A stretch of 64,000 bases of DNA from Azolla caroliniana (taxonomy: Eukaryota; Plantae; Polypodiophyta): contig JBHGNT010000015.1 in the NCBI GenBank assembly GCA_043228905.1, positions 12,524,001 to 12,588,000 on the forward strand. Reading direction: 5' to 3'. The notes below the pieces were generated by a model. The model was not told the origin of the DNA, did no database searches, and was given only the letters and a program-made list of their open reading frames with translations. The position numbers and the translations under genes were made by a program. Positions 4,744 through 52,379 of the stretch are shown here, piece after piece. The number at the start of each line of letters is the position of its first letter. The first letter of the stretch is position 1.

Positions 4744-5576
4744 TGTCGTGCCTTTCGGCTCCGGATCGTTGCGTGAGTCGGGTGGGAACCACAGAGGTCT
4801 TGGACTAGGAGAAAGAAGTTCGTGAGATAGAGATTAATTATGAGTAAATAGCAAAGAGAAAGATAAGAAACTCGTGAATCACACGAGTATACTATATTAA
4901 TTGGTACTTAGGGTGTTAAGAGAGAAGTAGATGTATAAATCGTGAATCCCACGAATAATTTTTGTATTGATTAATACTTAATCCAAATAATCAACAACCC
5001 TTTATATATTTCTCTCCTCCTTATATAAGGAAGGAAGAGCTAAGCATGGCTTCATGCTTTTTTTACAAAAAGTGTTCATGTCCACTAAATGTGCATGTGA
5101 TGCTTTTTTATTTCCTAAGTATAGGGCTCATGCACGCTAGATGTGCATGAGTTATTTTTAGTGTCTCGTGTTTTTTTTTTTTTTTTTTTCTTTTTCATAT
5201 ATTAAAAAAATACACGATTTACCTTTTAATAAAGGTATGCATAAATAAAGGTATGCATAAATAAAGGTCTTATATGTATTAAATCTATATTTAAAACACT
5301 TAAGATAAGTTAATGTAATGGTAAGGTTGGGGTTTGTCAACGTGGAGGTGTAGAGTTCGAATCACGCCCTGCGCAGTAGTGAGTATTTCCTTTTTTTTAC
5401 AATTATGTCTCTTTATCCGGCTCTTCCTTGCTGGTATGCCGTTTTCTTCCTTGCCGGTATGCCGTTTTCCTCCTTGCCGGTATGCCGTTTTCTTCCGGTT
5501 CTCACCGAGCACTCCATTCTCTATCCGGAGGGACAAAAATATAATTTCCACATAGTGTGCAACCTACACTACGACA
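4744..5576 (-). repeat. 3' LTR of C1 (833 bp)
   Basis: TGTCGT...ACGACA termini; three further copies in the window; contains three 23-bp tandem units (CTTCCTTGCCGGTATGCCGTTTT). Confidence 0.95.
5304..5398 (+). promoter_or_regulatory. tRNA-like Pol III cassette (A box, B box, oligo-T) in C LTR, antisense to the element
   Basis: A box TAATGTAATGG 5311-5321; B box AGTTCGAATCA 5354-5364 (32-nt spacing); T-run 5391-5398. Repeated at 11800-11853, 23259-23312 and 29699-29752. Does not fold into a full cloverleaf. Confidence 0.55.
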
Positions 5577-8500
5577 CTCGCCCCCTCCAAACCCGCACAT
5601 CCTCCGGTATGTGCCGAAGTTCTTGATTCTTCGTATCCGTCTTCATCCGAAGCTTCCTCCGATTCTCCCCTTATGTCGACTATGAGTTGTAATCCACTTT
5701 CTTCGCTTCCCGCATCATTGTGGTCTTCGTCCGATTGCTCCTCGTTGTCGGCCTCGACTTGGATCACATAAGGTTTGTCGTCGGTCCGCTTCTTGAAAAT
5801 CTTCACCCGCTTCCCGACTATAGGCACTCGTAGTATTGTTCCATCCAACTCGGACAGTCGGTACGTCCCGTTGTCGAAGACCTTCCGAACCTCGTACGGC
5901 CCGAACCACCTTTTCGCGAATTTCCGCATCGTTGTATGTTGATGGTCCAAGCTACTATCATACACGATCACCCAATCTCCTTCTTCAATCCTCCTCGGTC
6001 GTAGTCGGTGCTTTGTGTCGAACCGACTTTTGTTCCGGAACCGTGCTGCTTGTTGTCGGCGTGACGCTTCCGCTACATCTTTCGGTCTTCCCTCCAGTTG
6101 TCGTATCCGGACCGCTAGTAGTTCTTCCCGGCTCATCTCTTCCTTCCACGGTAGTATTGTCCATGTCGCGATTGCGGTTTCCGTTGGCATTACCGGTGCT
6201 TGTCCGGTCATGAGTTCTGCCGGCATGTAACCGGTCACGGAGCTATGCGTCGTCCGATCCGCCCATAGTGCATACGGAAGCATTTGTGGCCAATCCTTCA
6301 CCCTTCCGTCGCATGCCTTCGCAAGTGCTTTCACGATCGGACTATGTCCTCGTTCGATCTTCCCGTTGGCCTCCGGATTGTAGGCTGTTGTCAACGTTAA
6401 CCGAACTCCATGTTTGGCGAAGAATCCCCTAGCTTTGTCCGAGTCGAGTTCTCCCCGGTCCGCAATCACTTGTCCTACGCAGCCGTACCTACAAAACACT
6501 TCTTCCAAAAGAAATTGGCACACCGCGGCACACGTTTTCCTCCGAAGCGCTCGACCTTCAACTTGGTTTGTGAGATCTTCTCGAGCTAACACCAAGTATT
6601 TCTTTTGTCCAATCCCGGTCGGCATAGCTACAATGTCGACCATCCACTTGAAGTTGATTGTCGGTGAGAATGTCGGATGCAGCTCATCTCGGTGTCGGAC
6701 CCCGGAGTAGACTTGACATTTCTCGCAGCTTCCTGTGAACTCCGCGACATCTTTATACATGTTCTTCCACCAATATCTTTGCTTGATTTTCACAAAAGTT
6801 GCCCATGTTCCTCGATGTCCAGCCCAATCGGATTCGTGGAACTCGGACATTATCCGGTTTCGTTGCTCTTTCGTCCCGACTACTCGAAGTGGTATCCCAT
6901 CCGGTCTTTTCGGCGTCCTCCATATTAAACCGTTTTCCAAGAAGAACTTTTGGACTTGCCTCTTCTTCCTTCGGATCTCGGCTCTCCTTTCTTTATCATT
7001 GGTTGAATCCTCGACCTCTTGTAGCATCTTCCCGATCATCAAGGTTTCCCCCTCGTATTCTTCTTCCCGGAATTCTCGGATCACGTTCACTCGGCATATG
7101 TGTTCTGACGTGAAGTAGTCTTCGGAAACTTCTTCATTATCTGATTCGGTTATGTCGTCTTCAAACCGCGCCCTCGATAACATGTCCGCTCCCGCGTTGT
7201 CCTTCCCCGAGATGTGTCGAACCTCCAGATTAAGTGACTTGACATATGCAATCCACCTTAGCATAGCCACATCCGGTATCGTACAACACCGCATCATCCC
7301 GAGTATCGGAAGACAATCCGTCTCGATCACCACTTCAGCTCCGATCAAATAATCCCGATCCGATTTTATCGCCGACACGACTCCCCACAATTCTCTTTTG
7401 ACTTGTGCATATCCGCGTTGCCTTTCGTTGAGGACCTTTGATCCAAATCGGATCGGATACCGCGAACCATCCGAGTCGGCTTGATTGATGACCCACCCGA
7501 TACCGGTTGGACTTGTATCAACCGTTACTATGATTGGCCGCTCGTAGCTTGGCTTCTTAAGTGATTCCGCCCTCCATAGTGTCTTCTTGAGCTTCCTCAT
7601 GGCTTTAGTGTGTTCCGGTTTCCACTCGAATTTCTTACCTTTCCGCAACAAGTGATAGAGTGGGTCCGCTATATGTGCATAGTGCGGAATCCATATGTGA
7701 TAGAATGCACACGCACCCAGAAACCTTCGGACTTCCGATGTTGACTCACATACTTCCTTCATAGCTTGAATCGCATCGATCTTTGTTGGTGACGGTCTTC
7801 GGCCGTAGGGTCCACATAGATGTCCGACCACCAATATTTCTTCTTGCCCGAATGCCGATTTCTCCCCGGAAAGTGTTAGGTGCACATCTTCTAGCTTTCG
7901 CAACACTTTCTCGCAATCATGAATATGGTCGACCACGAACTTTCGGCATCCCTGATCATCCACAGTCTCATCTTTTTCTTCCACCGCGCATCCTTTCATC
8001 GGAATGTCATCTAGAAACGGCATCGTTATCTCCGGGATGCAATCTCGAAGCACCTTGTTCATCGCGTTCATCATATGTGCAACCGAGTTTGTCGCTCCTT
8101 GTGGTAGTGTGCACATTTGAACTAGTCCTATCGGTGTCCGCATGGTAGTGATGTCTCGGCTCTCCACGGCTAGTTGGAATTGGTCATACCCCGAGTATAG
8201 GTCCCCGATGGAGTATATCGCACGTCCGGCAAAAGCTTCCGCGAATTCGTCCACTATCGGACCGACTCCCGAGTTCCGGATCGTGACCTTGTTCACCGGT
8301 TGCAAGTCTTGGATGAATCGGAGTGACCCATTCTTCTTCGGAACCGTAAACCATCGATTTGAGTACGGAGCACTTGATGGCTCTAGAATCCCCATCGCCA
8401 CCTTCTCCTTGAGCAAGTCGATGACTTTCGGAATATGCGCCCGTGGCACCGGAATCGGCTTCAGGTTCCACGGTACATGATCAATCGTGAAAATCACCAT

Positions 8501-9031
8501 CGGCTCCACTATCTTTGGATCAATGCATCCGATCTCCCTCGATGTGAACGCGAATGCTTTGCCATGTTGCTCCAACATCTCTCGAAACCGTTTTTCTTCT
8601 TCTTGTAAGAGGAACCCACCTCCACCGATCCGAAGTTTCTTCTGGGTCTCATCTGTGAAGGCATGTCCGATATCCACGGACTTCCGAAGTGTCGGATCTC
8701 CCGAGACTTCTTTCTTCTTTTGTTCGCTATCGGCGGGTAGTGGTCCCGCGGCCGGTTTCACCTTCTTCTCCACGGTCTTGTATTTCGTACTTACCATTGC
8801 TTCTTCTTTGCGGAGCGCATCCGGCCCCATTTTCGCAACGATCTCGTACATCTCGACCGATTCCACCGGGACTACCCGGTTCCCTTGGCTTTTATCTTCC
8901 GCAAGCTCTTCAAGCCGTTGTAGTGTATTCCCATAGAACACTTCCTCGATCACTCCCACGATTTCTTCGTCTTCTTTTATTATTGATGCCGACCGTAACT
9001 TATCCTCCACTTGTCGGTATTGTTTCTTCAT
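5564..9031 (-). CDS. pol: C1 Pol (RT, RNase H, integrase), intact 1155-aa ORF, probably entered by a -1 frameshift near 9170
   Basis: RT motifs DLYSGYDQ, LPQGATNS, PFLDD; RNase H VTVDTS...ELWG...ETDC; integrase HHCC zinc finger, D-D-E core and GPY motif; no chromodomain. Confidence 0.93.
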   Translation of the reverse strand: MKKQYRQVEDKLRSASIIKEDEEIVGVIEEVFYGNTLQRLEELAEDKSQGNRVVPVESVEMYEIVAKMGPDALRKEEAMVSTKYKTVEKKVKPAAGPLPADSEQKKKEVSGDPTLRKSVDIGHAFTDETQKKLRIGGGGFLLQEEEKRFREMLEQHGKAFAFTSREIGCIDPKIVEPMVIFTIDHVPWNLKPIPVPRAHIPKVIDLLKEKVAMGILEPSSAPYSNRWFTVPKKNGSLRFIQDLQPVNKVTIRNSGVGPIVDEFAEAFAGRAIYSIGDLYSGYDQFQLAVESRDITTMRTPIGLVQMCTLPQGATNSVAHMMNAMNKVLRDCIPEITMPFLDDIPMKGCAVEEKDETVDDQGCRKFVVDHIHDCEKVLRKLEDVHLTLSGEKSAFGQEEILVVGHLCGPYGRRPSPTKIDAIQAMKEVCESTSEVRRFLGACAFYHIWIPHYAHIADPLYHLLRKGKKFEWKPEHTKAMRKLKKTLWRAESLKKPSYERPIIVTVDTSPTGIGWVINQADSDGSRYPIRFGSKVLNERQRGYAQVKRELWGVVSAIKSDRDYLIGAEVVIETDCLPILGMMRCCTIPDVAMLRWIAYVKSLNLEVRHISGKDNAGADMLSRARFEDDITESDNEEVSEDYFTSEHICRVNVIREFREEEYEGETLMIGKMLQEVEDSTNDKERRAEIRRKKRQVQKFFLENGLIWRTPKRPDGIPLRVVGTKEQRNRIMSEFHESDWAGHRGTWATFVKIKQRYWWKNMYKDVAEFTGSCEKCQVYSGVRHRDELHPTFSPTINFKWMVDIVAMPTGIGQKKYLVLAREDLTNQVEGRALRRKTCAAVCQFLLEEVFCRYGCVGQVIADRGELDSDKARGFFAKHGVRLTLTTAYNPEANGKIERGHSPIVKALAKACDGRVKDWPQMLPYALWADRTTHSSVTGYMPAELMTGQAPVMPTETAIATWTILPWKEEMSREELLAVRIRQLEGRPKDVAEASRRQQAARFRNKSRFDTKHRLRPRRIEEGDWVIVYDSSLDHQHTTMRKFAKRWFGPYEVRKVFDNGTYRLSELDGTILRVPIVGKRVKIFKKRTDDKPYVIQVEADNEEQSDEDHNDAGSEESGLQLIVDIRGESEEASDEDGYEESRTSAHTGGCAGLEGASVVV

Positions 9032-9084
9032 TCCTCCGGTTACGGCCGTGTACGTAGACGCCCCATCCGGGCCGATTCGTACTT

Positions 9085-9175
9085 GTTTTGCTCCGAGAGT
9101 TTTCTTCCTGTGTGGGGTATCAGGGCTTCTCGGACTATCACTTCCCCACTCCGCAACAGTCCGCTTTAAAAATCC
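9085..9175 (-). promoter_or_regulatory. Putative -1 ribosomal frameshift signal (slippery heptamer plus pseudoknot)
   Basis: G GAT TTT directly before the gag-pro stop; 5-nt spacer; stem CGGACTGTTGC/GTGATAGTCCG; loop TGGGG can pair with downstream CCCCA; the -1 frame is open to the pol ATG (9175-9031 = 144 nt). Confidence 0.7.
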
Positions 9176-11292
9176 ATTCTCACTTGGGACAAGAGTTCCC
9201 TCTTGTTCCTTTCGTGATTTGCCGGCACCATTAGGAATTGGACGGATTTCCCTCCGTTTTGGCTCCGAATTCGCGCAAAAGCCGCACCACTATCGAGCAC
9301 CTTCGTCTCCATCCGTGAAGCCGTGATAAAGGGTTGGCCGAGGATGACAGAATGTGAAACCTCATCCTGCACAAAGAAATTTTGGTCAATTTCGACATCC
9401 CCGATCTTTACCGTCACATCCGGACAAGCCGCAAATAGGTCTTCTGTCGTTTTCGTGGCTGCCCGAATCTTCCATCCATGGTTGGTGTTTATAGGCCACT
9501 TCCCCTTTCGGTAGAACTCCTTGGACATCAAGTTGATCTCCGATCCGTGATCAATCAATGCTAGCACGGGTTCTTTGATGTTGCCGATTCGGACCGGAGT
9601 CTCCGTAGTCGCACGTGCCCAGTGTGGCCTTGTATAGTGGGAGTTCGGAATTTCGCCTTCCACTTCGGTGTCGTTCATTGAAACGGTATTTGCATTCACC
9701 CTTGGAGCATTTTCCTCCGTACTTTGTCTCTTCCTTTTCACGAGATCCACAAGAAGATCGTGAAACTCCTTCTTCGCTATTCCGAGTAGTTCCCGCAGCG
9801 AAAAATCTACCCGGCTATCCAAGATTCTTTCCTCGAACACTCTTTTCAAGTCGGTTTGTTGTTCTATGTCCGAGGCGAGCTTGAATGCCGGAGTCGCCTT
9901 TTCTTTTCCCTTACCTCCGGAGTTCCAGCTTTCCGGTATCTTCGATGGTCCGGCCGCATCCTCCGTGCGCCGTCGTTTCTCGTCCACATACACCTCATGT
10001 AATTGACACAGGGCGTATATGCTATTCTTGTCGACAGGGCACTCCCATCCCGTAGCTTCCCGGACGCCTTCCGCGGTGTTTCGGATATCGTTGGAGTCGG
10101 TTTTCTCGGTGTTTCCTAGCACCTCCGGCCAGAAAGACGCCTTCGCTCCCGATGACTCCCCGACACATATTCCTGCGGTTGTCGCATAGTTGCTTCTTGC
10201 CGCTAACTCCTCCTCGAGCACCTTCTTCATGCCGCCTTTCCGGAAGTTCGGTCGGAGTGGCTTCCGAGAGTCCATCGAATGAATCCGGTTTCTCTCGTAG
10301 TAGATGAGATCCCGTCGTAGCGCCTCCTTATGGTCGTCGCAATCCCTCCGATCGTGTTCGGCGCTATCGCACCATATGCACCGTCGATCCGTATATTTGG
10401 AGCTTGTGGGGCGGTCATCCGACTTCTTCACCATCGCGATCTTTAGATTCTCCATCTCCTTCAGCAGCTGCTCCACCGTAGACGCGTCGACTCCCTTCTC
10501 GGCCGTAATCTCCCGAGCCCTCGGTTGATGGTCTTCCAATCCCGTTCTCGGTTTCGGAATCGGTTCCGAAACCCTCTTTTCTTCGTTGGCAAGCCATTGC
10601 CCCCTCTTCGTGTACCGCGCGACGATATCCCGCACGCTTTCCCATGTTTCGGTGAGGCCGCTTTCGGTGGTCGTGTCCTCAAGAAGCACTCCGAGATCTT
10701 TCCGGTCCCGGACGTCCACAACTCGCAAAAACATGATGACTTTGTCCGGTGCAAGAATAGTTTGATCTCTCGCGGACAACCTCCCGAACCGACTTTCGAA
10801 TGTCGAAAACACTTCGAGGACCTTCAACCCCTTACCTGACGTTTCCACCCAATCCTCGAATCCCCTCCGCGTTGCCTTGGAGGAGTCCTCGATGGCAAAC
10901 GTGGTCTTTAACGCCTCTTCGAATGCTTCCCACGTCGGATTTTGTTGTTGCAACCCGTGGATACTCCCTTGAAGCCCGTCGGTCGCCACCTGGTTAAAGG
11001 ATGTCACTTGCAGTCCTTCCGAAGCTCGGCACCGGAGCATCTCCGCCTTGTAGTCCTGCAAATATCGCGACACATCCTTACCATTAAATTGCCCGTTGCG
11101 TTGCACGAGCCGCTCTACTGATGCCGAAATCTCCGACATCGTGCGTTGTTCTTGAAGCATCCGTTCGAACATCGCCATCATATTGTTAGCTTGTTGAGCC
11201 TCCATCTCCTTGCCACCCGTCTTCACGTCGGGTTCACCAACTGCGTCGTGCCTTTCGGCTCCGGATCGTTGCGTGAGTCGGGTGGGAACCAC
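9166..11292 (-). CDS. gag: C1 Gag-protease, intact ORF (likely start MEAQQ near 11205)
   Basis: Gag core FNGKDVSRYL, zinc knuckle CIWCDSAEHDRRDC, aspartic protease ALIDHGSEIN...VILGQPF. Confidence 0.9.
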   Translation of the reverse strand: MVPTRLTQRSGAERHDAVGEPDVKTGGKEMEAQQANNMMAMFERMLQEQRTMSEISASVERLVQRNGQFNGKDVSRYLQDYKAEMLRCRASEGLQVTSFNQVATDGLQGSIHGLQQQNPTWEAFEEALKTTFAIEDSSKATRRGFEDWVETSGKGLKVLEVFSTFESRFGRLSARDQTILAPDKVIMFLRVVDVRDRKDLGVLLEDTTTESGLTETWESVRDIVARYTKRGQWLANEEKRVSEPIPKPRTGLEDHQPRAREITAEKGVDASTVEQLLKEMENLKIAMVKKSDDRPTSSKYTDRRCIWCDSAEHDRRDCDDHKEALRRDLIYYERNRIHSMDSRKPLRPNFRKGGMKKVLEEELAARSNYATTAGICVGESSGAKASFWPEVLGNTEKTDSNDIRNTAEGVREATGWECPVDKNSIYALCQLHEVYVDEKRRRTEDAAGPSKIPESWNSGGKGKEKATPAFKLASDIEQQTDLKRVFEERILDSRVDFSLRELLGIAKKEFHDLLVDLVKRKRQSTEENAPRVNANTVSMNDTEVEGEIPNSHYTRPHWARATTETPVRIGNIKEPVLALIDHGSEINLMSKEFYRKGKWPINTNHGWKIRAATKTTEDLFAACPDVTVKIGDVEIDQNFFVQDEVSHSVILGQPFITASRMETKVLDSGAAFARIRSQNGGKSVQFLMVPANHERNKRELLSQVRMDF
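11223..11239 (-). promoter_or_regulatory. Primer-binding site complementary to the tRNA-Trp 3' end
   Basis: Minus strand TGGTGAACCCGACGTGA, the complement of the plant tRNA-Trp end TCACGTCGGGTTCACCA. Same site at 12704-12720 and 29125-29141; variants at 4233-4249 and 30618-30634. Confidence 0.85.
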
Positions 11293-12052
11293 AGAGGTCT
11301 TGGACTAGGAGAAAGAAGTTCGTGAGATAGAGATTAATTATGAGTAAATAGCAAAGAGAAAGATAAGAAACTCGTGAATCACACGAGTATACTATATTAA
11401 TTGGTACTTAGGGTGTTAAGAGAGAAGTAGATGTATAAATCGTGAATCCCACGAATAATTTTTGTATTGATTAATACTTAATCCAAATAATCAACAACCC
11501 TTTATATATTTCTCTCCTCCTTATATAAGGAAGGAAGAGCTAAGCATGGCTTCATGCTTTTTTTTACAAAAAGTGTTCATGTCCACTAAATGTGCATGTG
11601 ATGCTTTTTTATTTCCTAAGTATAGGGCTCATGCACGCTAGATGTGCATGAGTTATTTTTAGTGTCTCGTGTTTTTTTTTTTTTTTTTTTTTTTCTTTTT
11701 CATATATTAAAAAAAAACACGATTTACCTTTTAATAAAGGTATGCATAAATAAAGGTCTTATACGTATTAAATCTATATTTAAAATACTTGAGATAAGTT
11801 AATGTAATGGTAAGGTTGGGGTTTGTCAACGTGGAGGTGCAGAGTTCGAATCACGCCCTGCGCAGTAGTGAGTATTTCCTTTTTTTTACTTTTATGTCTC
11901 TTTATCCGGCTCTTCCTTGCCGGTATGCCGTTTTCTTCCTTGCCGGTATGCCGTTTTCCTCCTTGCCGGTGTCGTAGTGTATTTTGTACACTACGTGAAA
12001 AATGTATATAGTATTAGATTCAATAAAAAATGAAGAAATAGAAGAAAATAGC

Positions 12053-12139
12053 AAAATAAATGGAACATGCATAGGGCAAGATTCGAACCTTGCACCTCCA
12101 TGTTAATAATGTAATGTCTTACCATTACACTAGCATTTC
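12053..12139 (-). promoter_or_regulatory. tRNA-like Pol III cassette in D LTR, antisense to the element
   Basis: Minus strand A box TAGTGTAATGG (12132-12122); B box GGTTCGAATCT (12089-12079) inside a GCAAG/CTTGC hairpin; 32-nt spacing; TTTT shortly downstream. Second copy 14870-14923. Confidence 0.65.
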
Positions 12140-12716
12140 ATTAATGTTAAAGCATAGATGTCCCACATAGAAAGGTAAATTCACGCTAGGATAAACATTA
12201 CAAAAACGCATAACAAAAGAAAAAGCTACATATACACATCTAGCGTGCATGATAAAAAACGCACAAGTTAGAAAAAAGCATGATCACTTTAGATAAAGCA
12301 TATAGTTTATCTATAGGAAAAGCATGGGGTCTATAGTTAGAGAAAAAGCATGGATTACTAAGACTTCCTCATCACTACATAAGGATGGGGAGCACAATGT
12401 AATTGTGTGTGAAAAATATTTGGAAACTAGATATGTTTCTAAAAAACACCAATTAATAAACTATACTCGTGGGATTCACGAGAATTCTAAATCATTCTCT
12501 TTCAACCGAAGTTTATATTCTTATATTCATATTGATTAATCTAATACAATACACTCGTGGGATTCACGAGTTTGCTATAACTCTTTCTTACAACATATTT
12601 ATATTCTTATTAGCCTTAAAACTCTCCTCTTCCTAGTCCAAAACCCCAGCGGTTCCCACCCGACTCACGCAAACGATCCGGAGCCGAAAGGCACGACACA
12701 AGTTGGTGAACCCGAC

Positions 12717-38020: not shown

Positions 38021-38032
38021 TTGAACCAATTT
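38021..38032 (+). promoter_or_regulatory. Putative self-priming PBS of L
   Basis: TTGAACCAATTT, 2 nt after the 5' LTR, is the exact reverse complement of AAATTGGTTCAA (37784-37795), which starts 32 nt after the start of TATAAAA (37752). Confidence 0.75.
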
Positions 38033-38086
38033 TCCCTCTCTAGTCTTTCTTTTGTTTCCCTCATCCTCTTATCCTTTTTCTATACA

Positions 38087-41000: not shown

Positions 41001-42360
41001 TGTCTTTAGTGATCACAAGAATCTTGCTTCTTTCCAGAACGCTCGGGTGCTAAATCGACAGCAGGCTCGGTGGGCTCAATTCCTCACGCGTTTTGACTTC
41101 AAAATCACATATCGACCGGGGAAGCAACAAGGAAAAGCAGATGCGCTATCACAGCGTTCATATCTTGCACCTCGTCCTGGTGATTCAGTGTTTGATAATC
41201 AAAAGCAAGTAATCTTGGGACCAACACGATTGCACACAACGCGGATTTTTCACACCCCAATGGATTCCCAAATTATCGATGCCATACGTGAGAACTTGAA
41301 GACAGATAATTTTGCTCAAGACATTCTGGCGCACATTGATACCTCTTGGGCATCCTGTTCCCAATCTCAACAACCAGGTATGGACTACCGATAATTCGAA
41401 AATCATGATGGTTTGTTATTCTTTAAAAAGCTTGTATATTTCCCCGATTGCTCCTCTCGCCTTCAAATCGTCCAAAATTGTCACGACACCCATACAGCGG
41501 GACATTTCAGTGGCTCTAAGTCGTTGGATCTTGTTCAACGATCTTTTTGGTGGCCCCATATGCGACATTTTGTCGACGACTACATTCGGACTTGTGATGC
41601 TTGCTGCCGAGCAAAGATGCCCCAACACCATCCATATGGCTTGTTGGAACCCTTACCGATTCCAAGTAAGCCGTGGCAGTCTATTTGTCTTGATTTTATC
41701 ACAAATCTGCCGGTCTCGAAGGGGTTCGATGCTATCTTAACTGTCATCGATCGATATACTAAGATGGCACATTTTGTGCCATGTACTAAGGCCATCACTA
41801 GCGAGGAAACCGCCGCCCTTGTCATGCGTGAGGTATTTCGGCATCATGGCCTCCTAGATAGTATCATCAGTGACCGAGGACCTCAATTCGTCTCCAAATT
41901 TTGGCAACATCTTTTCAAGATGCTCAAGGTCTCTTGCAACCTCTCCTCCGGCTACCATCCCCAAATTGATAGGCAGGCAGAATGAACAAACCAAACATTG
42001 GAACAATATCTCCGGTGTTTCCTGAGTTATCAACATGACGATTGGGCTGAGATTCTCCACTTTGCGGAGTTTGCATATAATAATGTTGTTCAGTCCTCGA
42101 CTCGGGTCTCCCCATTTTACGCTTATACCAGTTCTCATCCTCATTGGTCGGTGATCGACACCCTGGAGCTACCTACCAATCCTCATGTCGAGGATCATTT
42201 GTAGAGGCTACGCAAGATCCAGATGGATCTCTCTACTCATTTTCGTCATGCTCAACACACACAGAAGACTTATGTGGATCATCATCGTCTTCCCTCCTCT
42301 TTTGCCATCGGAGATCGAGTATGGCTCTTACGTCGTCACATCAAGACTACTCGACCGTGC
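38087..42360 (+). pseudogene. Degenerate gag-pol of chromovirus L
   Basis: Gag KFDGTRSQFRGFLNQ; protease IVLGLPW; [26 protein letters not shown]; RNase H ASDFALG, HDKELLAI; integrase HHCC, SDRGPQF; several stops. Confidence 0.92.
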
Positions 42361-42806
42361 GACAATGTTGCCTCTTAGGAACACGGTCCGTGGTCAGTCC
42401 TTCGACCTAGACCCCAAGGTGGGTGTGGAACAACGAACAGAGCTTAAGTGTACTGCGTAGGGAGAGAACCTCTGTGATTCCTCTGTGCGTACGGGGAGAC
42501 GGCTACAACCGACTCCTTATCACAGGTTGCACTTACGTACTACTACGCTTACGTATCCAAGACACAAACAGTGAATTAGTCGCAGCTACACACAGAAACT
42601 CAGAGAAGATAGTATTTTATTATCAAACGTTCTTTTACATTTCCCAAAAATTACACGCACCTCCTTAAGAGGTTTTCTGCCCTTTATATATGCAGGGTCT
42701 AATTAGCCGTTCACGCTTCCCGCGTGAACCGTTACATACGTTACGCTTATATAGTTTCTTATTCCTACGCTTTTGGCCGTCGGTTACTATTCCAACGGAC
42801 AACACC

Positions 42807-42823
42807 TGGCACGCCTGTGGGAC
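42807..42823 (+). promoter_or_regulatory. Inverted PBS-like site at the expected PPT position of A2
   Basis: TGGCACGCCTGTGGGAC 2 nt inside the 3' LTR boundary; the element strand reads GTCCCACAGGCGTGCCA-GG-TGTT and is not purine-rich. Confidence 0.7.
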
Positions 42824-42886
42824 AGTGCCTTTGCACGTCGAACCCATCCCGTTAATCTTCTTCCAAAATGGCCCGGATGTTCGGCT

Positions 42887-45763
42887 CTATTGTGGTGTCC
42901 TCGTCCGGAGTTGATGTAGGTCCTGTAGGTGCATCGTGGTGCGGCTCCTTTGCTTCGTCGGCCTGGTTTTTCCCGGAGTCGCCTTCGTCGTGTGCGTGTG
43001 GTCGGTGGGCTCTTCTTGAGTTAGTGGGCTGGGCTCCGCCGGTAGCGTGCTTGCCATCGGCTGCAGCTCAGCTTCTATTGTTACGTCCTCCGCGGTGTTG
43101 GTCGTTTTTGTGTGTCCCTGGGCGTGGGGCGAGGATTCCGCCTGGTCCGCACTATTTTCCGCGTTTTCTGAAGATGGTGTGGGTTGGACCTCTTGTTGGT
43201 TAATGTTTTCGCTGTCTGGTCCTATGGGGAACTCTGCTCGTTCGTCCCCGCTATTCTCCCCCGTTGTCCTCCCTGGTGATCGGGCCTGAGGTTCCTCTTC
43301 TTCGGTTGTGACCGGAATTGGTGTCCCGCTGGGTTCCTCGTTCGTGTGCGTGTTGCCGGTTTGTGTGATCTGGTGAAATAGCTCCTCCTGACTTTCACCA
43401 AAATCATCAAGGAGTTGTGCGAGTTCTTCGGAGTGTTGATCTGCTAACGTGCGATAGTCTTGCACTAGGTCCTCCCGTACGGTCGCAATGCTCTCCTCGT
43501 TTAGCTTATAAAACCCTCAACCATCTTTCCGCCGGTTCTCCCAGTCCGCACGATACGAGTGCAATTCCGCTGCTTGGGTTGCCCATGCCATCCATCCTTT
43601 GTCCAGCACCGTTTCCAATTGCGCTGTGAACCTTTCCCGGTTGGTCTGGAGAAGGTCGCGCACGTTATCCGTGATAGCCTGACAGCGGTTGCGTGCGTCT
43701 TCCATTGACTTCTGGAGATTCACGATTTCCTGTTGTTTAACTGTTGCCACTTCCTCGTACGTGGCCTTTAGGCCCGCCTACAGCTCGGATTCCTTTTCAT
43801 GTTGTTCTTCTAATTTTCCCATTTCATTGTTTAGGCAGACTTCGAGTTGATGCCTTCTGTCTTGTTCGACTACCAACTGCTCATCGAACCATACCTTCTT
43901 TTTTTCTAATAAGGCCCGAAGTCCCGCTATTGCCGCCCTTGATTTCTTCGCGTCCTCTCGTAATTGGGCGTTGTCCTTTTGTGTCTGGATGTGTTGGGCT
44001 ACCTCCGTAGCTAGTTTCTCTTCAAGCGTTTTTACGACCTTTCGTCCGTTAGCCCGTATCTCCTTTTCTCTGTCGGAGGATTGGTGTAGTTCTGCTCGAA
44101 GACGGTCAATTTCGGATTCCGCTAGCTGCACGGCCCATTTTTCTTTTGAGGCGATGGCGATCTAAGCCTCGATTTCTTCTTTGCGAGCGTTGATAACGTG
44201 GTTCGGTGGCGGGGTTTCGTGTTGCACAGTAGTCGTGTGAGCTTCCAACTCCGCGATGTGTGCGTTGGCCTTTTGTAGTTCGGCTTCCGTCAGTTTCACC
44301 TTCTTCCAGACATTCTTATTTTTTATGGCCATCTCCTTGGCGCCCGTGCTGACCTTTGCCAGTTCCCGATGGACTTCGACTAGGGCCGTGTTTAAGGGTG
44401 GTATCTCCATCCCTACTCGTCGTACCCCGGCGTTCCTCTGTCTGTCGACCCTAGCTAGCCGGTCCTCATCGTCGCTCTCCGTTGTTTGCGTTAGGGCACG
44501 CTCTATCATCTGACGTTCCGCATGCTCCTGTTGTGTTGTCAGGAACTCCATGAGCTCGAAAGAGGTACCGAATTGCAAGAGGGCGCTGAATTCGTGGGCC
44601 GTATCCAGAATATCCGGATATGCCAAAACCTCGTTTTCCGGCGTCAATACGGCTTTCCCTTGTTGGGACTGAGTCGTAATAATCGGTCGCGGCTCCCGGA
44701 TGATTTCGAAGGTGGTATTCGGCTCTGCTGTTGCGGGGCCTTCGCCTGCGGTCGGTGCCTCCGGATCCGTGGGGGCGTTTTTTACCAACCCCCGCCCATC
44801 TTTTCTGTCCAATCTGCGCCGTTTTGGTCTAGGGATTTCCCGTCGTGTTTCGGTGTCTAGTTCTGGGGCTGCTTCCATGGGGTGTCTCGGTTGTTCCTCC
44901 TGCGTCGCCCGTGTGTCCGGTTGGTCGGTAGGAGGTGTTGTCCTTGGGCCTAGTTGGGCCGGTTGGGGTTCCTCATCCCACTCTAGGGCCGCTAACTCCG
45001 CTAACCTGCGTTTCGCGGAGCGGGGCGGGGCCGTGGGTTCGCTGGGTTGTGGTGTTGGCAAGCCTCGGGGTGGAAACAGTACCGTAAGGTATTGTTGGAT
45101 GATTGGCCTGAGCTTTTTGCCTTCTTGGTATGCATGCAAGCCTTCCCTTAATGTCGGCCCTATGATGACCCCCCAGTCGACTGTACGCCCTTCAAAGCTG
45201 TCGATAATGATGCCCGCCTTCTGTTTAGGCATCCCGTAAGCGTTGACATGGACGCAGCCGACTTCCAGTAGGAACTTGGCAACTTCACGGAGGAAGGGAT
45301 CCGGAATCTGTTTTGTTCTATAGGCCTTGGCGGAGGATGAATATGGGCCAAAATACCGTTGCAGCGCCTCTGTAGGAGGTATTTCGAAATTTGTTTTGCC
45401 TAGTGAGGATAGGTCTACCTTCTTCCGAATGTAAGAGTTAGTGACCGTGTCGATGTTAAGCCGCCTAGCGATGTCCATGGCGTCCGGGTGCAGAGGTGCT
45501 TCTGCGACCCGAATATAACCATCCAGGCGCTTCTCCACGAGCCATCGGCGTAGGGCAGTAGAGATGAAGATCGGCATCGCTAGAGTAGGTTCGTGGAGAG
45601 GAGACGTGTAGCAGTGATGAGTTGGAGCTCTGAGATATGATGGGGAAGAAGGTGAGGAGGAGCGATGGGAGCGCTGATAGCTAGACGATGTGTTTCTGCT
45701 TTGTGCAGAAAATCTTCTGTTTCCTTCTTTTTGTAGCTTAGGGTTCATTGGGCGGTGAGCCAT
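42887..45763 (-). pseudogene. Extra sense ORF of A2 (env-position), broken by stops and frameshifts; coiled-coil-rich
   Basis: ORFs 44162-45763, 43778-44131, 43517-43750 and 42887-43465 lie between integrase and the 3' LTR. Confidence 0.75.
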
Positions 45764-45922
45764 CGTGGTGCCGCGTGTTCTTGAACTCAGAGTTTGTGCA
45801 TGCCTTTAGTCGTTTTAATAGTCGCTATCTTCTCTCTCTTTTTTCTTTTTTCTTTTTCTTTTTTTTCGTAACGGTTAGTTACACCCTACTTTTACAATAT
45901 AGTACAAATGGGACTGTCCCTT

Positions 45923-48900
45923 TTACGCTGCTGGTTCTCTAGCTTCGTCCCGTTCGGCGGTGAAAGGGTTAGGTGGCGTAGGGCCCAGGTAAGGTTTCAG
46001 CCGAAACCCATTCACTTTTTGCCGTACTATTTCTCCAGCCAGCGTTCCTAGTTGGAACATGCCCTGTTCCGCTCCAATTATCCAGTATGGGCCGGTCCAG
46101 CGGAAATGTAACTTCCTTGGCATATGGCCCATGTGCATTTGAAACACTAGCACCGCTCGGCCCACGGCGAACTCCTTTTCCCTTGCGCTCCGATGTCGAT
46201 CGACAAACGCTTTACGCCGTCACTGTTCCTCTTCCAACACAGCCATGTTGTGGACGTGTTTTTCCCCTAGTTTGAGGAGTTGGTAGAGCCGTTCCTCCTC
46301 TGACTTGGCTTCTGATAATCGGTTCTGTACCTGAATGCGCAAACTAGATACCCGAAATTCGACCGGCATCACAGCTTCTAGTCCAAACGCTAGCCGGAAC
46401 GGTGTTGACTGTATGCTTGTTTTGTAACTAGTTTTATATGCCCATAACACACCCTGGAGTTTGGTATCCCAGTCCGTTCTATTTTCATTGACAGTTTTCT
46501 TCAAAATGGTCTGTAAAGTTTTGTTCGTGGATTCCGCTAATCCATTCGCCTGTGGGTAGTATTGCGTGCTCTTCTTGTGGTCTACTGCGTAATGTTGTGT
46601 TAGTTCCCGAACCACCGTATTGAGAAAGTGGCTCCCCTGGTCACTGATGAGCTCAATCAGGCTGCTGTTGGTGTGAAGGGCCCCACAAAATCCAATCCCC
46701 ACTTTTGGAAGGGGTCCAGTGGTAATACGGGCTGGTGTGGCATCCTTGCGTCCTCCGCGGGCTGACCCATCCGCTGGCACAAATCACACTTTCTACAATA
46801 CTCGGATGCGTCCTTCTGCGTTGTTGGCCACCATAAGCCCTCCTGCCATACTTTGCGGGTTGTCACGTTGCCCGCGTAATGGCCGTCGGCCGTGCCGTAG
46901 TGTGCCTCCCGTAAAACTGCTTCTTTTTCATCCTGACGGACTCCACGTCGCCAAATGTCGTCACTCCCTTTGTGATATAAATTCCCTTCGACCAGGCAGA
47001 AGTGACGGCTTCGGACGGCTAGTCGTTTCTTCTCGTATGTGTGTAATTGTGGTGGTGGTAGTCCTGTAGTTAAAAAGTACGTCATTTCCATAAGCCATCG
47101 ATCCGGAAAGGTGGATTCCGTTTTTTCTACAAATGTCGCTACTTGCTAGATGTTGGCGTCCGGAAAATCGTTGTCGTCTTTCTGTACTGTTTCTCCATTC
47201 TCAAGTCTGCTCAAAAAATCTGCCACTGCGTGTTGCGTCCTTGGCCGGTGTTGAAGTATGAACTCGAATTCCTGGAGCAGCAGCATCCACCGCGCCAATT
47301 TCCCTGTCAGGGCTTGTTTCTCCACCAAATACAATAATGCCGAATGATCCACGTGGAACGAGAATTTCCATCCTAGTAAATAATGTCGGAATTTATTGAT
47401 GTTATAGATCATCCCTAGCGCCTCCCGCTCTGTTGTGGAATAGTTACGCTCTTCTGCTGTCAATTTACGACTTGCGTAGTATACTGGCCTGTACCAGTTT
47501 GGTTCGGTGAGTTGCATTAGCGTGCTTCCTATTGCTATGTCTGAGGCGTCGACGAACACGTGGAATGGCTTCGCCCAAACTGGAGGTTGTACGACGGGGG
47601 CCTGTGTCAGCATTATCTTAAGTGCCTCATAGGCCTTATCCTCTATTGCAGTCCATTGGAAAGGAGTCCGATGTACGGCAACGTGTAGTGGCGTGGCGAA
47701 GTCCGCCTTATACCGTATCATCCGACTATGCCACCGTATTTGGCCCAGAAACCGGCTAAGTGATTTGGCATTTGTCGGAGTTTTAGCTTGCGTAATAGCG
47801 GAGATCTTGTTTGGGTCGACCGCTATTCCTTCCTTGCTTACGATGTGGCCTAGGAGAGTCCCGTTGGTCATGCCGAAGGCACATTTCGCGGGATTCAAGC
47901 TTAAGTGTGTGGTGCAGCAACGTTCCAGGCAGAGACGTAAGTGCGAGAAATGGTCTTTTGTTCGCCCATATACCGCAAAATCGTCTAAAAAGACTTGCAT
48001 GAACGCCGGAATGTATTCCCCAACGATCTCCGTAATCGTTCGTTGGAATGTTGCCGGCGCTGTCTTTAGCCCGAACATCATGACGACCGCCACATATACT
48101 CCCCAGTCCATGACAAATGTCGTCTTCTCCTGGTCCTCGGGGTGCATGCGTACTTGGTTATAACCACTGACGCCATCTAAGAAATTGTACATCTCATGGC
48201 CTGCGACGGCGTCCAGCACGCTATCGGTGAAGGGTAAGGGAAATGCGTCTGTAATGGTTACAGCGTTTAATTTCCGGTAATCCACGCATACCCGTATTTT
48301 GTTGTTTTTCTTTGGGACAACCACTATCGGGCTAAGCCATGTCGCTTGTTTCACTGGTCATATGAACCCCGCCCTCAGCAGCTTGTCAATTTCTTCTTTC
48401 ACGTGGGTCGCGTAATTGGGGTTCATGCGGTAGCGACGCTGCTGGACAGGTTTCACGTCCGTTACTAAATTGATCTTATGTTGATAGAACATGGGATCTA
48501 ACCCCTTCATGTCCTCGTGAGCCCACGCGAACACATCTTTATATTCCGTGAGTAGTGCGATCATTGTGGTTCTCTGGTCCGGCCTCAATTCCTTTGCTAT
48601 GGAGAGGAACCGGGGTTCCGATCCCGTACCCACATTCACTTCGTCGAGAGCGGAAGCGGTGACTCATCGTGAAATCTCCATTTCCCTTTCGAAGGCCGCT
48701 TGTGCTCTGCTGAGTTCCAATATGGACTCTAGGTTTGGTTCGTACGGCTCTTCGCTCGGAACAATGGTCGTAGTATATTATGCCGCTGTTGCGATGACAT
48801 CTATCTCAAACAACGAAATAATCCGAGGATGTTCGTCCAGGTACGCTTCCAATTCGGCATCCTCCACCCCAGCCAGCATATTGATGTCTTCGCATACAAC

Positions 48901-50901
48901 GGTGTTATCCCCTTAGGTTGTGGCGTGTTGCCTTCCGTCGATACACGAACCTTGATGCGTCCATGCTGGAAACTGATACACTCGTGTTGCCAGCTCTGCT
49001 TGATATTTGTTGTCCGAAGCCATGGTCTGCCTAGAAGCATTGGGTACGCTCCTGGGGCGTCCAAAGCGAGGACGACCACCGATATGCCGAAGCGGTGTCC
49101 GCCCACGATGATGCCTATTTTGTGAATTAGCTCCAACGGTCGCACTGATCGGGTATTTGCCATGCGAAGCCAGAATGGACACGCCTCCCATTCGGAAATG
49201 CCCAACTATTCGCAAGTTTTCGCGCTAATCACATTGACGCCTGAGCCGCCGTCAATTACACATCCAGGAACTTCCTGTCCGTGCAATATTACTGTAATGG
49301 CCGGGTTGTGCTGCTCCACCACTGGTGGTCCCTCGCTGACATCAGTTAGGTTTGTGGCAACGCTGGCCCCGGTCATGCCCGCCACCTGTGCTTCCATGGT
49401 CTGGCGAAAACGTGGAACTAGCTGTAGCAGTTTTTCCATAGTTAACGTGATTTCACAACCCGCTAACACCTGCCAAATGGGGTCTGGCCCCGGTTTTTCG
49501 TTCTCTGTTCGCTTCATTGCGTTCGCGGACTCCTGCCTCATACGTTCCGTATTGGTCGCGTTTGCTTTTTCCACCTAGGCTTGGGCTTGTCGTTGTACCT
49601 CGTCCTGCGCAGCCCAATCCGTCGTTTTTGTTTGCTGGCGTGTTGACTTGTTGCACCTCCGTCGTAATCGTGTTGACGGCGGGCCCCTTTCCCTTGCATG
49701 TTGGGCATTGTGTGGCATAATGTCCAAGTTGCTGACAAATAAAATAATGGATGCTTGATTCTCCCTTCTCAGCCCCAGGTGGAGTGTGCTGTTCTCCGGG
49801 CGCTACTTGCTCTTCGCGGTCCGGCCTCTTTTGTCAAGACGTACGCGGTGGCTGCTGTTGGTCCCGTCGTTGTTCCTGGTCCCGCTCATCCCCCGAGCTT
49901 TCTTTCGTCGTAATGCCGGTGATCCCTATATTGTCGAGGCTTACCCCAATAGCCATTGAAGCCGCCCCGTTTGTTTGTCGAGCGTTGATGTTCGTATCGC
50001 CGACCCCCTTTGGCGTAACTTGGATGTCCACGATAATCCTTGTCCTCCGGGTCGTCCTCCTCGGACTCTTTGTGATTTCGGCGATTCCGGTTGTACCTGT
50101 CCTCCCGCAAGTTGCGATCCTTATACCAGGGTTGGTCCTCTTGCCTCCTTTGTTCCGCCCGGTGCGGTTGCCACTGTGTGTCCATGCCGCTGTGTGTCTG
50201 TTTAACATATTGTACTCGCATTGGTCGATTGTGTGAACCTTCGAGTGGCAGATTGGGCAGTGGATTCGCATATTGCACTCCACTGCGGAATGCCCTGAGT
50301 TCAAGCAAATCGTGCACTGGATTGCCTGACGAAATTGGCGTTCCTCATCCTAAGGTAACGCTTGTCGTAAGGATGACATCGAAAACCTCTCCTCCTCATC
50401 ATCCAACTCGAGTTGTAACGCTCATTCAATCACCATATCCTTCGTTTCCCCTTTCATGCTATTGTTGTTGAGCGTTGCCCGGATGGGCCGGCGTAACGCT
50501 GCCAGAAATGTCTCCCGAGCCTCCTCCTCCGCGGGGCTTCGATCCAGTTTCGGTCGTAAATTTTGGAACCGTAAGCTGAAGTCTGCTATCGTCTCAGTCG
50601 GTAGTTGCTTAATTGTATAAAACTGCCCGAGAATCTCGCGTTGTGGAACCCTCCGGTGGAAGAAACGCAAGAAGGCGGACTGCAGCTGATTGAAGGTTGT
50701 TATGGCTAGTAAATCCATCTGTGAATGTCAGAACGCCGCACGCCCATCTAATGTTAATCTGAACTCCGTCATTTTCGACTGGTGTGCCACCGTCTCGGAA
50801 AGGTTCTGCGCCATGTGGTTCGCATTCCAAACGTTCAAGAACATGTGAATATGAGTTGCGGCGTCGGTTTCGCCGTTAAAGCGAGGGTAGGCAAAGGCCA
50901 T
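45923..50901 (-). pseudogene. Degenerate gag-pol of A2
   Basis: RT WLSPIVVVPKK, CVDYRKLN, VFLDD; RNase H VFVDAS, NYSTTERE; integrase ISDQGSHF, YYPQANGLAE, WTGPY; many frameshifts and a deletion in integrase. Confidence 0.92.
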
Positions 50902-51635
50902 CGTGGGAGCTACGGCGGATCGGAAAAGGTCACCGGGTGGCTGCGGTAAGCATGGTCCCCTCGCCTCGTCGAGGTATTTGGGGAGCAAGGAATCCCCTTT
51001 GCACTCCTGGCAGGTATTACTGAGGTCGCCGTTGCGCGGCTTTTGCCGGGCGCGTTCTTCTGCCTGGCGTGTGACGGACCTTGTTATTGGCCGGTCTTGT
51101 CTTGTTGGTTCTCTGGGTCGTCTGCGGCTAAACATCCATTCGTTGTTGCTCGTCTGTGAGGAAACACAGATCACCAAGCATGCCAAAAGTGTTGCCTCTT
51201 AGGAACACGGTCCGTGGTCAGTCCTTCGACCTAGACCCCAATGTGGGTGTGGAACAACGAACAGAGCTTAAGCGTACTGCGTAAGGAGAGAACCTCTGTG
51301 ATTCCTCCATGTGTACGGGGAGATGGCTACAACCGACTCCTTATCACAGGTTGCACTTACGTACTACTACGCTTACATATCCAAGAAACAGACACTGAAT
51401 TAGTCGCAGCTACACACAGAAACTCAAAGAAGATAGTATTTTATTATCAAGCGTTCTTTTACATTTCCCAAAAATTACACACACATCCTTAAGAGGTTTT
51501 CTGCCCTTTATATATGCAGGTTCTAATTAGCCGTTCACGCTTCCCGCGTGAACCATTACATACGTTACGCTTACATAGTTTCTTATTCCTACATGCTTTT
51601 GGCCGTCGGTTACTATTCCGGCGGACAACAGACAA

Positions 51636-52039
51636 GTTGGATTATCGACGACTCGGTCCTTTCCGTATTACTAGTAAGGTTAATGATGTCACGTTCTGCC
51701 TTGATCTTCCTCCGCATCTTCAGATACATCCGGTTTTCCATAGCTCTCTTCTTGAACCTTATAAAGCAAACACTATTCCCAATCGTGTTACACCACCACC
51801 GCCCCCGCTTGAGTTGGAAGTCGGCCCGGAGTATGAAGTTGTTGCTGTCCTCGATTCCAAACTTGTTCGCAACAAACTTTATTATTTGGTCGATTGGCTC
51901 GTTGAACGTACTTGGGAACCCATTGAGCATGTCGCCAATGCTCAAGATCTTCTTGCTAAGTTCCAGCGAAAGTATCCGAACAAACCCGGTCCGCAATCAA
52001 CGCCGACTCGTTCAACTCGTCGTCTTAAGGGGGAGATAG
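51636..52039 (+). pseudogene. Integrase C-terminus and chromodomain of L
   Basis: LGPFRI, IHPVFHSSLLEP, EYEVVAVLDSK...YYLVDW...TWEP. Confidence 0.9.
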
Positions 52040-52331
52040 TGTCATGATATGGCAAGACTCGATCCCAGGACCTTATGTTATATGGGTCGAGCTCTTGACC
52101 ATTATACCATCTATTGTAATACGTAGGATATTATTTTCATTTAAGTTTTATTATAGGAAATTAATGTATATTCCAGATTTCTCTAGAACATTCTAGAAGC
52201 TTCAGGATTTCTCCTGAGAACACTATAAAAGAAGGCACTAGGCATTATTCTGAACCAAATTGGTTCAACGCCAGTCTTAAGCCTCTTAGCCATCTTGTAC
52301 TTACTCTTCCTATAATATATCATCAGTTATC

Positions 52332-52379
<48 letters not shown>

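Follow-up and report, generated by a model that had tools for sequence, protein, structure and literature searches.

A tRNA-like A/B-box cassette in the U3 region of two LTR retrotransposon lineages: a candidate TFIIIC/Pol III site

Introduction

How LTR retrotransposons remain active in the heterochromatin that they build is an open question. In the DNA studied here, a window of 64 kb (the whole stretch that was analysed), the U3 regions of all eight LTRs of families C, D and L carry an A box and a B box at tRNA spacing. A first-pass annotation, made from the sequence alone, had listed eight such antisense cassettes with 32-33 nt between the boxes, and all of them were found in place. The question is what this module may do in an LTR.

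Results

The cassettes and their host elements

The positions of cassettes and elements are given in Table 1. The gap between the boxes is 32 nt in C and D and 33 nt in L, in C the B box is at nt 223 of the LTR, in D at nt 120 and in L at nt 26, and all eight cassettes are located 5' of the TATA box of their carrier and antisense to it (C on the minus strand with plus-strand cassettes, D and L on the plus strand with minus-strand cassettes). As the LTR pairs are 95-99.7% alike, the eight copies amount to three sequences. Seven of the eight are 0-3 mismatches away from the textbook A/B consensus of type 2 Pol III promoters, from which the T56 dominant in L departs. A scan with this consensus (up to 3 mismatches) yielded nine matches in the window, seven being cassettes of C, D or L. 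A profile scan yielded eight matches of at least 14 bits, exactly the eight LTRs (null 1.3 per Mb), the profile having been trained partly on D and L, themselves among these matches. The GGWTCGA type of B box, seen in the 3' LTR of L, is given for P. patens tRNAs in a passage of PMC12498455.

Table 1. Retrotransposon elements and A/B-box cassettes in the 64-kb window
Feature	Position	Strand	Remarks
Element C1, Phygy-type gypsy	4744..15589	-	LTRs 4744-5576 and 11244-15589 (latter split by D)
Element D, 3.5-kb gag-only sister of C	11970..15489	+	LTRs 11970-12698 and 14761-15489, 99.7% alike
Element C2, second C copy	22706..29964	-	LTRs 22706-23478 and 29146-29964
Element L, Tcn1-type chromovirus (probable)	37568..52487	+	LTRs 37568-38018 and 52040-52487; broken by nested insertions
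Element E LTR, Phygy lineage	20996..21944	+	CATG module present, cassette absent; internal negative control
Cassette, C1 3' LTR	5311..5398	+	A 5311-5321, variable-loop AGGT 5346-5349, B 5354-5364, T8 ~5391-5398; antisense to C1
Cassette, C1 5' LTR	11800..11887	+	A 11800-11810, B 11843-11853, T8 run
Cassette, C2 3' LTR	23259..23346	+	A 23259-23269, B 23302-23312
Cassette, C2 5' LTR	29699..29786	+	A from 29699, B 29742-29752; B box broken at position 57
Cassette, D 5' LTR	12053..12132	-	A 12132-12122, B 12089-12079, first T4 22 nt beyond
Cassette, D 3' LTR	14844..14923	-	A 14923-14913, B 14880-14870
Cassette, L 5' LTR	37583..37637	-	A 37637-37627, B 37593-37583, T56 (position normally invariant)
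Cassette, L 3' LTR	52055..52109	-	A 52109-52099, B 52065-52055, GGWTCGA-type

In C1 both gag (9166-11304) and pol (5564-9289) are open, and D, which sits head-to-head within U3 of the 5' LTR of C1, contains an ORF of 739 codons. C and D have homologous LTRs and Gag N-termini with 54% identity, and as sister families they form one lineage beside L. Of the earlier description as three families from two distant lineages the two lineages are retained, but only three sequences are involved and C and D are sisters. Both have a tRNA PBS, which we take to be that of tRNA-Trp as in Phygy-type elements, and 4-bp target duplications (ACGT, ACGC, CCGG); an NCGN rule is given for Phygy in the relevant passage of PMC6317226. 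By these features C and D are most probably Phygy members, i.e. short gypsy elements outside the chromoviruses. No relatives of the C pol were detected in viral contigs.

L possesses a TATA box at 37751, a 5-bp target duplication and remnants of gag-pol. Instead of a tRNA PBS, a 12-nt self-primer at 37784 is complementary to the sequence directly after the 5' LTR. The closest relatives (91% identity) carry the chromodomain PF00385, and the matches include Tf2, indicating kinship with Tf1/Sushi. L appears to be a self-priming Tcn1 chromovirus, with the chromodomain seen in these nearest relatives.

Enrichment and constraint

Matches with at most one mismatch numbered 16 in 57 LTR-bearing segments (51 kb) compared to none in each of 20 dinucleotide shuffles, so that the control for chance matches proposed in the annotation spoke for the cassettes; only one further match occurred in the other 401 kb. 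Although gaps of 15-70 nt were allowed, the distance between the starts of the two boxes was 43-44 nt in 17 of 24 matches. Furthermore, in 21 non-redundant seed matches the consensus of columns 44-47, which had not been selected on, was AGGT, each of the four letters being present in 85-90%.

Pairwise identity among 27 cassettes was 0.66 in the A box, 0.75 in the B box and 0.93 in columns 44-47, but 0.33 in the spacer 24-37, 0.34 at positions 48-51 and 0.28-0.33 in the flanks. In five orthologous copies, sharing LTR position and 3' flank, the spacer was randomised at constant length (identity 0.41 vs 0.81-1.0 for 38-47, the B box and 63-72). CpG decay at the unscored columns 56-57 gave CA and TG in a ratio of 15 : 2 among 30 (naive p 0.001), and T4 was found once inside the cassettes where 5.3 were expected (p 0.012), both p-values counting related copies as independent. 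A4 was not reduced (3 vs 3.4), so that the depletion is confined to the cassette strand. The excess of CA represents decay toward a tolerated B-box variant and was counted for a selected Pol III-type promoter, although the same bias is also expected from G-U pairing with a tRNA. Taken together, the kept boxes and spacing, the CA bias and the scarce internal T4 point to a selected Pol III-type promoter, as far as sequence comparison can tell. Position 56 of L, a very abundant family, showed no variant at 5% or more, from which it follows that the dominant B box of L has the suboptimal T56; five of 12 variable sites lie within the A box, including a change of G10 to A in 15-24%.

tRNA, RNA fold and terminator

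ARAGORN predicted no tRNA in the window, and a search of the whole window with Rfam gave no tRNA match. The D cassette aligned almost gap-free to positions 8-63 of the Rfam tRNA model, reaching 13.4 bits (cut-off 29). A conserved cloverleaf was rejected, as the stems pair at the level of permuted sequences (n=19; D 0.53/0.55, anticodon 0.40/0.43, acceptor 0.41/0.40, T 0.75/0.71), in agreement with the annotation, which had stated that the boxes are conserved and the cloverleaf is not. Covariation in the T stem was marginal (p 0.04-0.09). Likewise, a conserved RNA fold was rejected: 17 of 20 folded cassettes had z from -1.9 to +1.5 (C +1.5), and D and both L copies reached -3.0 to -3.2.

The oligo-T runs reported near C and D exist (T8 and T4, implying an RNA of about 90-96 nt), but T4 within 60 nt downstream is no commoner than in shuffled sequence (16 of 27 cassettes vs 15.4). 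No terminator lies within the LTRs of L, L031 and L074; the 15 nt of LTR that follow the cassette at 37583..37637 are terminator-free. An upstream CAA motif was detected in only three of 27 cassettes. Around the cassettes neither the body nor the tail of a SINE was seen, nor was a target duplication, and the 64-kb window holds no free copies outside LTRs.

Distribution among relatives

The cassette is present in 16 of 35 Phygy LTR clusters, 11 with antisense copies, two with sense copies and three with both. Its antisense orientation thus holds for 8/8 copies in the window and for 14 of the 16 carrying clusters, but not for all relatives, since sense copies occur in five. Up to three copies were found among relatives, and two nested Tcn1-like LTRs bear the cassette, too. 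A TATA box was recognised by the pattern in 11 of 15 LTRs, at 147-284 nt (median 182) from the A-box start. The remaining 19 Phygy clusters have no canonical cassette; among them are element E of this window and near sisters of carriers. In the tree of relatives the row L070 is contaminated by a nested element. Cross-lineage matches of the row L036n_tcn, which is mostly Phygy LTR under a wrong label, were left out.

Among distant chromoviruses, 44 loci (L081-L124; 237 kb, 36-61% identity, mixed origin) were free of the cassette, and the sole strong match there is a true tRNA-Ile gene. The 5' LTR of L046 is a chimera comprising the 5' half of an L036/L037-type LTR including its cassette. Phygy and Tcn1-like LTRs also have a CATG-rich U3 module in common. 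Both observations support the earlier idea of exchange, here of U3 pieces, as the way in which the cassette spread. Degenerate copies exist in C (29742), L013 and L037, the latter keeping both boxes with a spacer 11 nt shorter, and T56 occurs in L and L074. One match (L080:1385) falls outside any recognised LTR. Contig coverage did not differ, the median being 25 with the cassette (n=14) and 26 without it (n=13) in samples that were not normalised.

Discussion

A candidate barrier in U3

We give about even odds (roughly 50%) to the explanation that the U3 module is a TFIIIC/Pol III assembly site which lies back-to-back with the Pol II promoter and acts as a barrier. Of the functions suggested in the annotation, an insulator is the best candidate. 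According to this model, a tRNA-derived A box, AGGT and B box, mostly pointing away from the TATA box of the carrier, would bind TFIIIC or assemble Pol III, and the Pol II promoter would stay open, shielded within nested clusters of silenced retrotransposons. The cassette may originate from a tRNA gene or the head of a tRNA-derived SINE and is probably under purifying selection. For a possible role as barrier or against read-through, tDNA/ETC sites and B2 SINEs serve as models: chromatin boundaries harbour TFIIIC sites, methylation is delimited by B2 SINEs (PMC8136502, in part), and tDNAs stop Pol II read-through (PMC4228148, in part). That the cassette can face either way and be present up to three times fits a site acting at the DNA level. 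The scarcity of internal T4 suggests some Pol III read-through, and any cassette RNA would likely be a by-product with ragged ends. Against a barrier we counted the patchy spread, the lack of a coverage gain, the unconserved terminators and folding, the T56 and the variable A-box sites of L, the broken B box of C and the spacer of L037. Moreover, the element's own genomic transcript would have to pass any strong Pol III complex that formed in the 3' LTR. In a wider scenario, which is conceivable although we would bet against it, autonomous LTR retrotransposons domesticated a tRNA-gene promoter as a portable insulator and traded it between Phygy and Tcn1 by LTR-in-LTR capture, so that transcription could persist in their own heterochromatic nests.

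Alternatively, the cassette might be a Pol III gene whose antisense RNA of about 90 nt is itself functional, as small-RNA precursor, decoy or trans regulator of sister elements. The strand-specific depletion of internal T4, the T runs of C and D, the folding of D and both L copies and the precedent of SFV and BLV (excerpts of PMC6468702) argue for it, but with terminators not enriched and absent from three LTRs, most folds at z from -1.9 to +1.5, the spacer at chance identity and sense copies present, we hold it to be unlikely. The defined antisense small RNA proposed in the annotation finds little support for the same reasons, terminators not being enriched and the fold not being conserved. 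Slightly less probable still are neutral relics, i.e. SINE heads of several families captured and carried along by U3 shuffling, with the conservation of the boxes inherited from the donors. The patchy spread without coverage advantage, the degenerate copies, the match outside a recognised LTR and the agreement of the boxes with the plant SINE-Finder motifs RVTGG and GTTCRA (PMC7315354, in part) count in favour of relics; the orthologous copies which kept their boxes while the spacer 24-37 was randomised, the CA:TG bias and the lack of SINE remains and free copies speak against them.

The antisense bias and the location in U3 would also suit a tRNA-like stretch in the 3' U3 of the sense genomic RNA that anneals to the D and T arms of the primer tRNA and aids initiation or strand transfer. 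The bipartite PBS of Ty3 (PMC5371799, in part) and the tRNA-like U3-R sequence of HIV-1 (cited in PMC6468702) are precedents, and the conserved AGGT and the CA bias are compatible with pairing. L, however, is self-priming without a tRNA PBS, and sense copies occur. Moreover, positions 48-51, which a continuous duplex requires, have an identity of 0.34, the A-box positions 9-13 vary freely, and 62-72 show only 0.29 identity to the primer derived from the PBS (n=14; the D and T loops of the primer lie outside this comparison), making such annealing improbable. We attach least credit to the boxes being landing pads for Ty3-like, Pol III-targeting integrases which steer insertions into other elements. 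D did insert into the cassette-bearing U3 of C1, but about 170 nt downstream, not upstream, of the A-box start and at a site agreeing with the NCGN preference of Phygy (PMC6317226, in part), and 0/8 window cassettes have an insertion just upstream of the A box, with few insertions in the sample.

Comparison with known systems and significance

The barrier model is directly testable, as the module is sequence-defined, mutable, only 55 nt long and present or absent among sister families. If TFIIIC is bound, an abundant family such as L would spread thousands of sites genome-wide. If the insulator reading is true, retrotransposons would possess thousands of copies of a device that counters silencing in cis, and Pol III-based boundaries in plants would become accessible for the first time. 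The observations carry the Pol III-type LTR promoter over from non-coding TRIMs to elements that are autonomous, and suggest a possible source of TRIMp3 elements. A literature search, with most subscription papers and Repbase notes outside its scope, did not turn up any account of A/B boxes in the LTRs of autonomous moss elements, and by word search Pol III is unmentioned in PMC7466625, PMC2864245 and PMC3601003. The novelty claimed in the annotation was nevertheless overstated, as excerpts of PMC10886601 and PMC6468702 describe A/B boxes in Helenus LTRs and Pol III miRNA cassettes in the LTR of SFV.

The closest likeness is to Helenus (TRIMp3), where LTR sequence is tRNA-derived and the A and B boxes are conserved without a functional tRNA (Kojima 2024, PMC10886601). 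In the passages available from that paper, insertion of a SINE into an LTR is proposed as origin and one family is located in the lycophyte Selaginella; "not a few" Repbase LTRs are called tRNA-like, though only TRIMs were studied, and autonomous partners are expected to have no such LTR stretches in common. Helenus elements are non-coding TRIMs of 311-1263 bp with a genomic RNA thought to be made by Pol III. As in Helenus, both LTRs carry the boxes here, but the carriers are not short non-coding TRIMs: they encode gag or gag-pol, measure 3.5-7 kb, keep their TATA box and have the boxes mostly antisense, and the boxes are not placed for the genomic RNA. Cassandra and Ajax TRIMs also have an internal Pol III promoter in their LTRs, Cassandra being widespread in land plants with validated Pol III transcription, but theirs is of the 5S type (A, IE and C boxes), drives the element's own RNA and belongs to non-autonomous elements (PMC10886601, in part).

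A Pol III unit within an autonomous retroelement is also known from SFV, where it is part of the LTR, and from BLV, but these yield defined miRNA hairpins, whereas neither fold nor terminator is conserved here (excerpts of PMC6468702 and PMC12498455). Ty3 shares a gypsy U3 sequence complementary to the D and T arms of a tRNA (PMC5371799, in part); its PBS is specific for the primer tRNA, whereas the cassette is not, is found in a self-priming element, too, and occurs in both orientations. In tDNA/ETC barriers and mouse B2 boundaries, A/B-box DNA acts via an effect on chromatin (PMC4228148 and PMC8136502, in part), and B2 resembles these LTRs in that its other strand bears a Pol II TATA box (PMC8136502, in part). 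Those are host genes or free SINEs, whereas the candidate site described here is built into the LTR and copied with it.

Cassettes in the window and their host elements

Nested LTR retrotransposons make up the window. The gypsy elements C and D, members of a Phygy-type lineage, have PBS, LTR ends and Gag N-terminus (54% identical) in common, and their target duplications of 4 bp are consistent with the NCGN rule stated for Phygy by Neumann et al. (PMC6317226). Pol relatives of C include sequences from the liverwort Riccia (~60%); others reach up to 98%. D is young (its two LTRs are 99.7% alike); its ORF of 739 codons matches C Gag in the first ~270 only, the remainder being without Pfam hit. 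L is assigned to the Tcn1 type, known from mosses and club-mosses (PMC6317226), because chromodomain-bearing relatives are up to 91% identical, its hits include Tf2, and a 12-nt self-primer at the predicted start is complementary to bases behind the 5' LTR. Together these affinities suggest a bryophyte host, probably a moss.

Coordinates of elements and sequence features (window numbering unless a locus of a relative is named)
Feature	Position	Strand	Description
C1	4744-15589	minus	gypsy, gag and pol open
C2	22706-29964	minus	gypsy, gag and pol open
D	11970-15489	plus	3.5 kb, gag only, head-to-head inside U3 of the C1 5' LTR
L	37568-52487	plus	Tcn1-type chromovirus
Near-palindrome, 19 nt	D 12486-12625 and matching C LTR part		two copies 3' of TATA box; kept between C and D, surroundings not kept
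Tandem repeat, 54 nt	15890-16318		six copies within a short ORF
L cassette spacer	37568-37649, 52040-52121	minus	inverted near-copy of own B-box region
CATG module	21460-21650; L019:1039, L031:3977, L036:7087, L041:6831, L046:7277, L074:1821		CATG-rich, palindromic, 5' of TATA box
Chimeric 5' LTR	L046:6922-7581		ends of L047 type

All eight tRNA-type cassettes listed by the first-pass annotation were recovered at its positions, antisense and within U3, their boxes separated by 32 nt in C and D and by 33 nt in L, as claimed. They represent three sequences from two lineages. A scan with a textbook A/B-box consensus (up to 3 mismatches) gave 9 matches in the window, 7 of them cassettes of C, D and L. 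A profile trained partly on these cassettes found exactly the eight, versus 1.3 matches/Mb in shuffles. No cassette was detected in the other scored window LTRs, including that of the Phygy-lineage element E. ARAGORN called no tRNA gene in the window, and the alignment of D with the Rfam tRNA model, which spans positions 8-63, scored 13.4 bits where the cut-off is 29.

Spread among relatives

The cassette is more widespread than the first reading indicated. An alignment of 20 pol proteins led to 80 loci from metagenomes. With at most 1 mismatch, the textbook scan found 16 matches in 51 kb of LTR-bearing sequence (57 segments with partial redundancy and some flank), against none in any of the 20 shuffles. 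The other 401 kb contained a single match, situated in a nested Tcn1-like LTR (L031). With gaps of 15-70 nt allowed, 17 of 24 matches had the tRNA distance; one locus (L037) has both boxes with a spacer of 21 nt. After removal of five false LTR starts and pieces below 350 nt, 16 of 35 LTR clusters carried a canonical cassette, some two or three. The antisense orientation of the window copies holds for 11 of these clusters; 2 are sense only and 3 have both. Carriers occur at 70-98% pol identity, interleaved with non-carriers in a tree of 38 rows, LTR-pol links being uncertain because contigs of repeats can be chimeric. The nested LTRs of L031 and L074 resemble L and have the cassette antisense, adjoining the 5' end. 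No cassette was found by profile scan in 44 distant chromovirus loci, the only strong match being a real tRNA gene. The eukaryotic chromovirus contigs L100-L123 come from genome records of bacteria and archaea, where they most probably reflect binning contamination. Good cassettes at L022:12026 and L080:1385, outside the LTRs assigned here, may be donors in free form or belong to LTRs of further families.

Conservation of the boxes

The cassette keeps exactly the register of a tRNA. Pairwise identity in 27 cassettes was 0.66 for the A box, 0.75 for the B box and 0.93 for columns 44-47, but only 0.33 at positions 24-37, close to the 0.28-0.33 of the flanks. The AGGT of columns 44-47, which played no part in selecting the matches, is present in 85-90% of the 21 seeds. 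Five copies are orthologous (C, D, L002, L063, L027); between them identity falls to 0.41 at positions 24-37, whose length is constant, against 0.81-1.0 for the stretch 38-47, for the B box and for the ten bases that follow. Pairing in the cloverleaf stems did not exceed that of permuted partners (n = 19 after removal of two probable chance matches), bearing out the statement that the boxes are kept and the cloverleaf is not.

CA is the CpG-decay form tolerated by B boxes. Among 30 B boxes, positions 56-57 being unscored, we counted CA 15 times and TG twice; internal T4 was seen once versus 5.3 expected, A4 3 times versus 3.4. The p-values of both comparisons are optimistic because relatives were treated as independent. 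In L-like contig pieces (thousands, from two DNA runs) a 111-nt stretch had 12 sites with variants of at least 5%: five in the A box, four in the spacer and three upstream. None fell within the initial 36 nt, which comprise terminus, B box and AGGT; this zone overlaps the integrase end, however, and the listing of variants close to contig ends may be incomplete. At 37589 no such variant occurred, so T56, a departure from the consensus, is the dominant form of the B box in L. This form counts against a maintained promoter, as does contig coverage, which did not differ between carriers and non-carriers.

Possible role and spread

The cassette is a real feature, and its conservation pattern suggests a maintained Pol III-type promoter (probability about 0.75) that is probably under selection. 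A TATA pattern was found in 11 of 15 LTRs, and in these the A box starts 147-284 nt upstream of it (~115 nt in L), placing Pol III-type and Pol II promoters back to back. TFIIIC sites occur at chromatin boundaries, B2 SINEs with an antisense TATA box bound methylation (both PMC8136502), and tDNAs block Pol II read-through (PMC4228148). By analogy, a putative TFIIIC site might serve the element as barrier or promoter opener, to which we give even odds. Losses and weak variants may, speculatively, reflect what a roadblock in the 3' LTR costs the element.

A DNA site for TFIIIC fits better than an RNA product because boxes and spacing are kept, the interior is free, and either orientation and multiple copies occur. 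A functional antisense RNA seems unlikely, the depletion of internal T4 notwithstanding. C and D have the oligo-T noted earlier; over 27 cassettes, T4 within 60 nt downstream was at shuffled level (16 of 27 versus 15.4). Among 20 folded cassettes only D and two L copies reached z <= -3. The L spacer and B-box region form one long hairpin (z about -3), absent in most other families. Neutral SINE relics, for which patchy spread and equal coverage speak, are slightly less probable again, given the boxes kept in the five orthologous copies. Annealing to primer tRNA as in Ty3 (PMC5371799) would fit the antisense bias and the U3 location, but L is self-priming and sense copies occur, and we consider it improbable. 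That cassettes are landing pads, as the insertion of D into a cassette-bearing U3 might hint, is the remotest of these readings.

For the promoter-like cassette, the repeated capture or exchange proposed earlier gains one example. Starting at nt 128, the L046 5' LTR carries a piece of another LTR: the 5' half of the L036/L037 type, cassette included (77-79% identity), the insert's own terminal sequence still being present. Phygy LTRs, like the Tcn1-like L031 and L074, have the CATG module between the cassette and the TATA box; element E has it without cassette. The module resembles RY/B3-factor sites. Exchange between Phygy and Tcn1, as against separate captures, is likely but short of proof because cross-lineage likeness outside boxes and module extends over 24-36 nt only. 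The inverted D in the C1 U3 would be a route for a second, opposite-facing cassette into an LTR. L041:7044 and L075:3717 are sense cassettes ~170 nt 3' of the TATA box, accompanied by two antisense ones in U3, and possibly could seed a Pol III-driven short derivative.

Comparison with known systems

Pol III miRNA units are present in the LTR of simian foamy virus (PMC6468702). In literature mostly outside subscription journals no description of such cassettes in autonomous elements of mosses turned up, and to that extent the first-pass remark that no description was known stands. It does not hold for LTR boxes as such: Helenus, with one family in Selaginella, also has tRNA-derived boxes in its LTRs, and the tRNA resemblance of many Repbase LTRs is remarked on, undescribed, in the same source (PMC10886601). 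Helenus is a short non-coding TRIM, unlike the window carriers.
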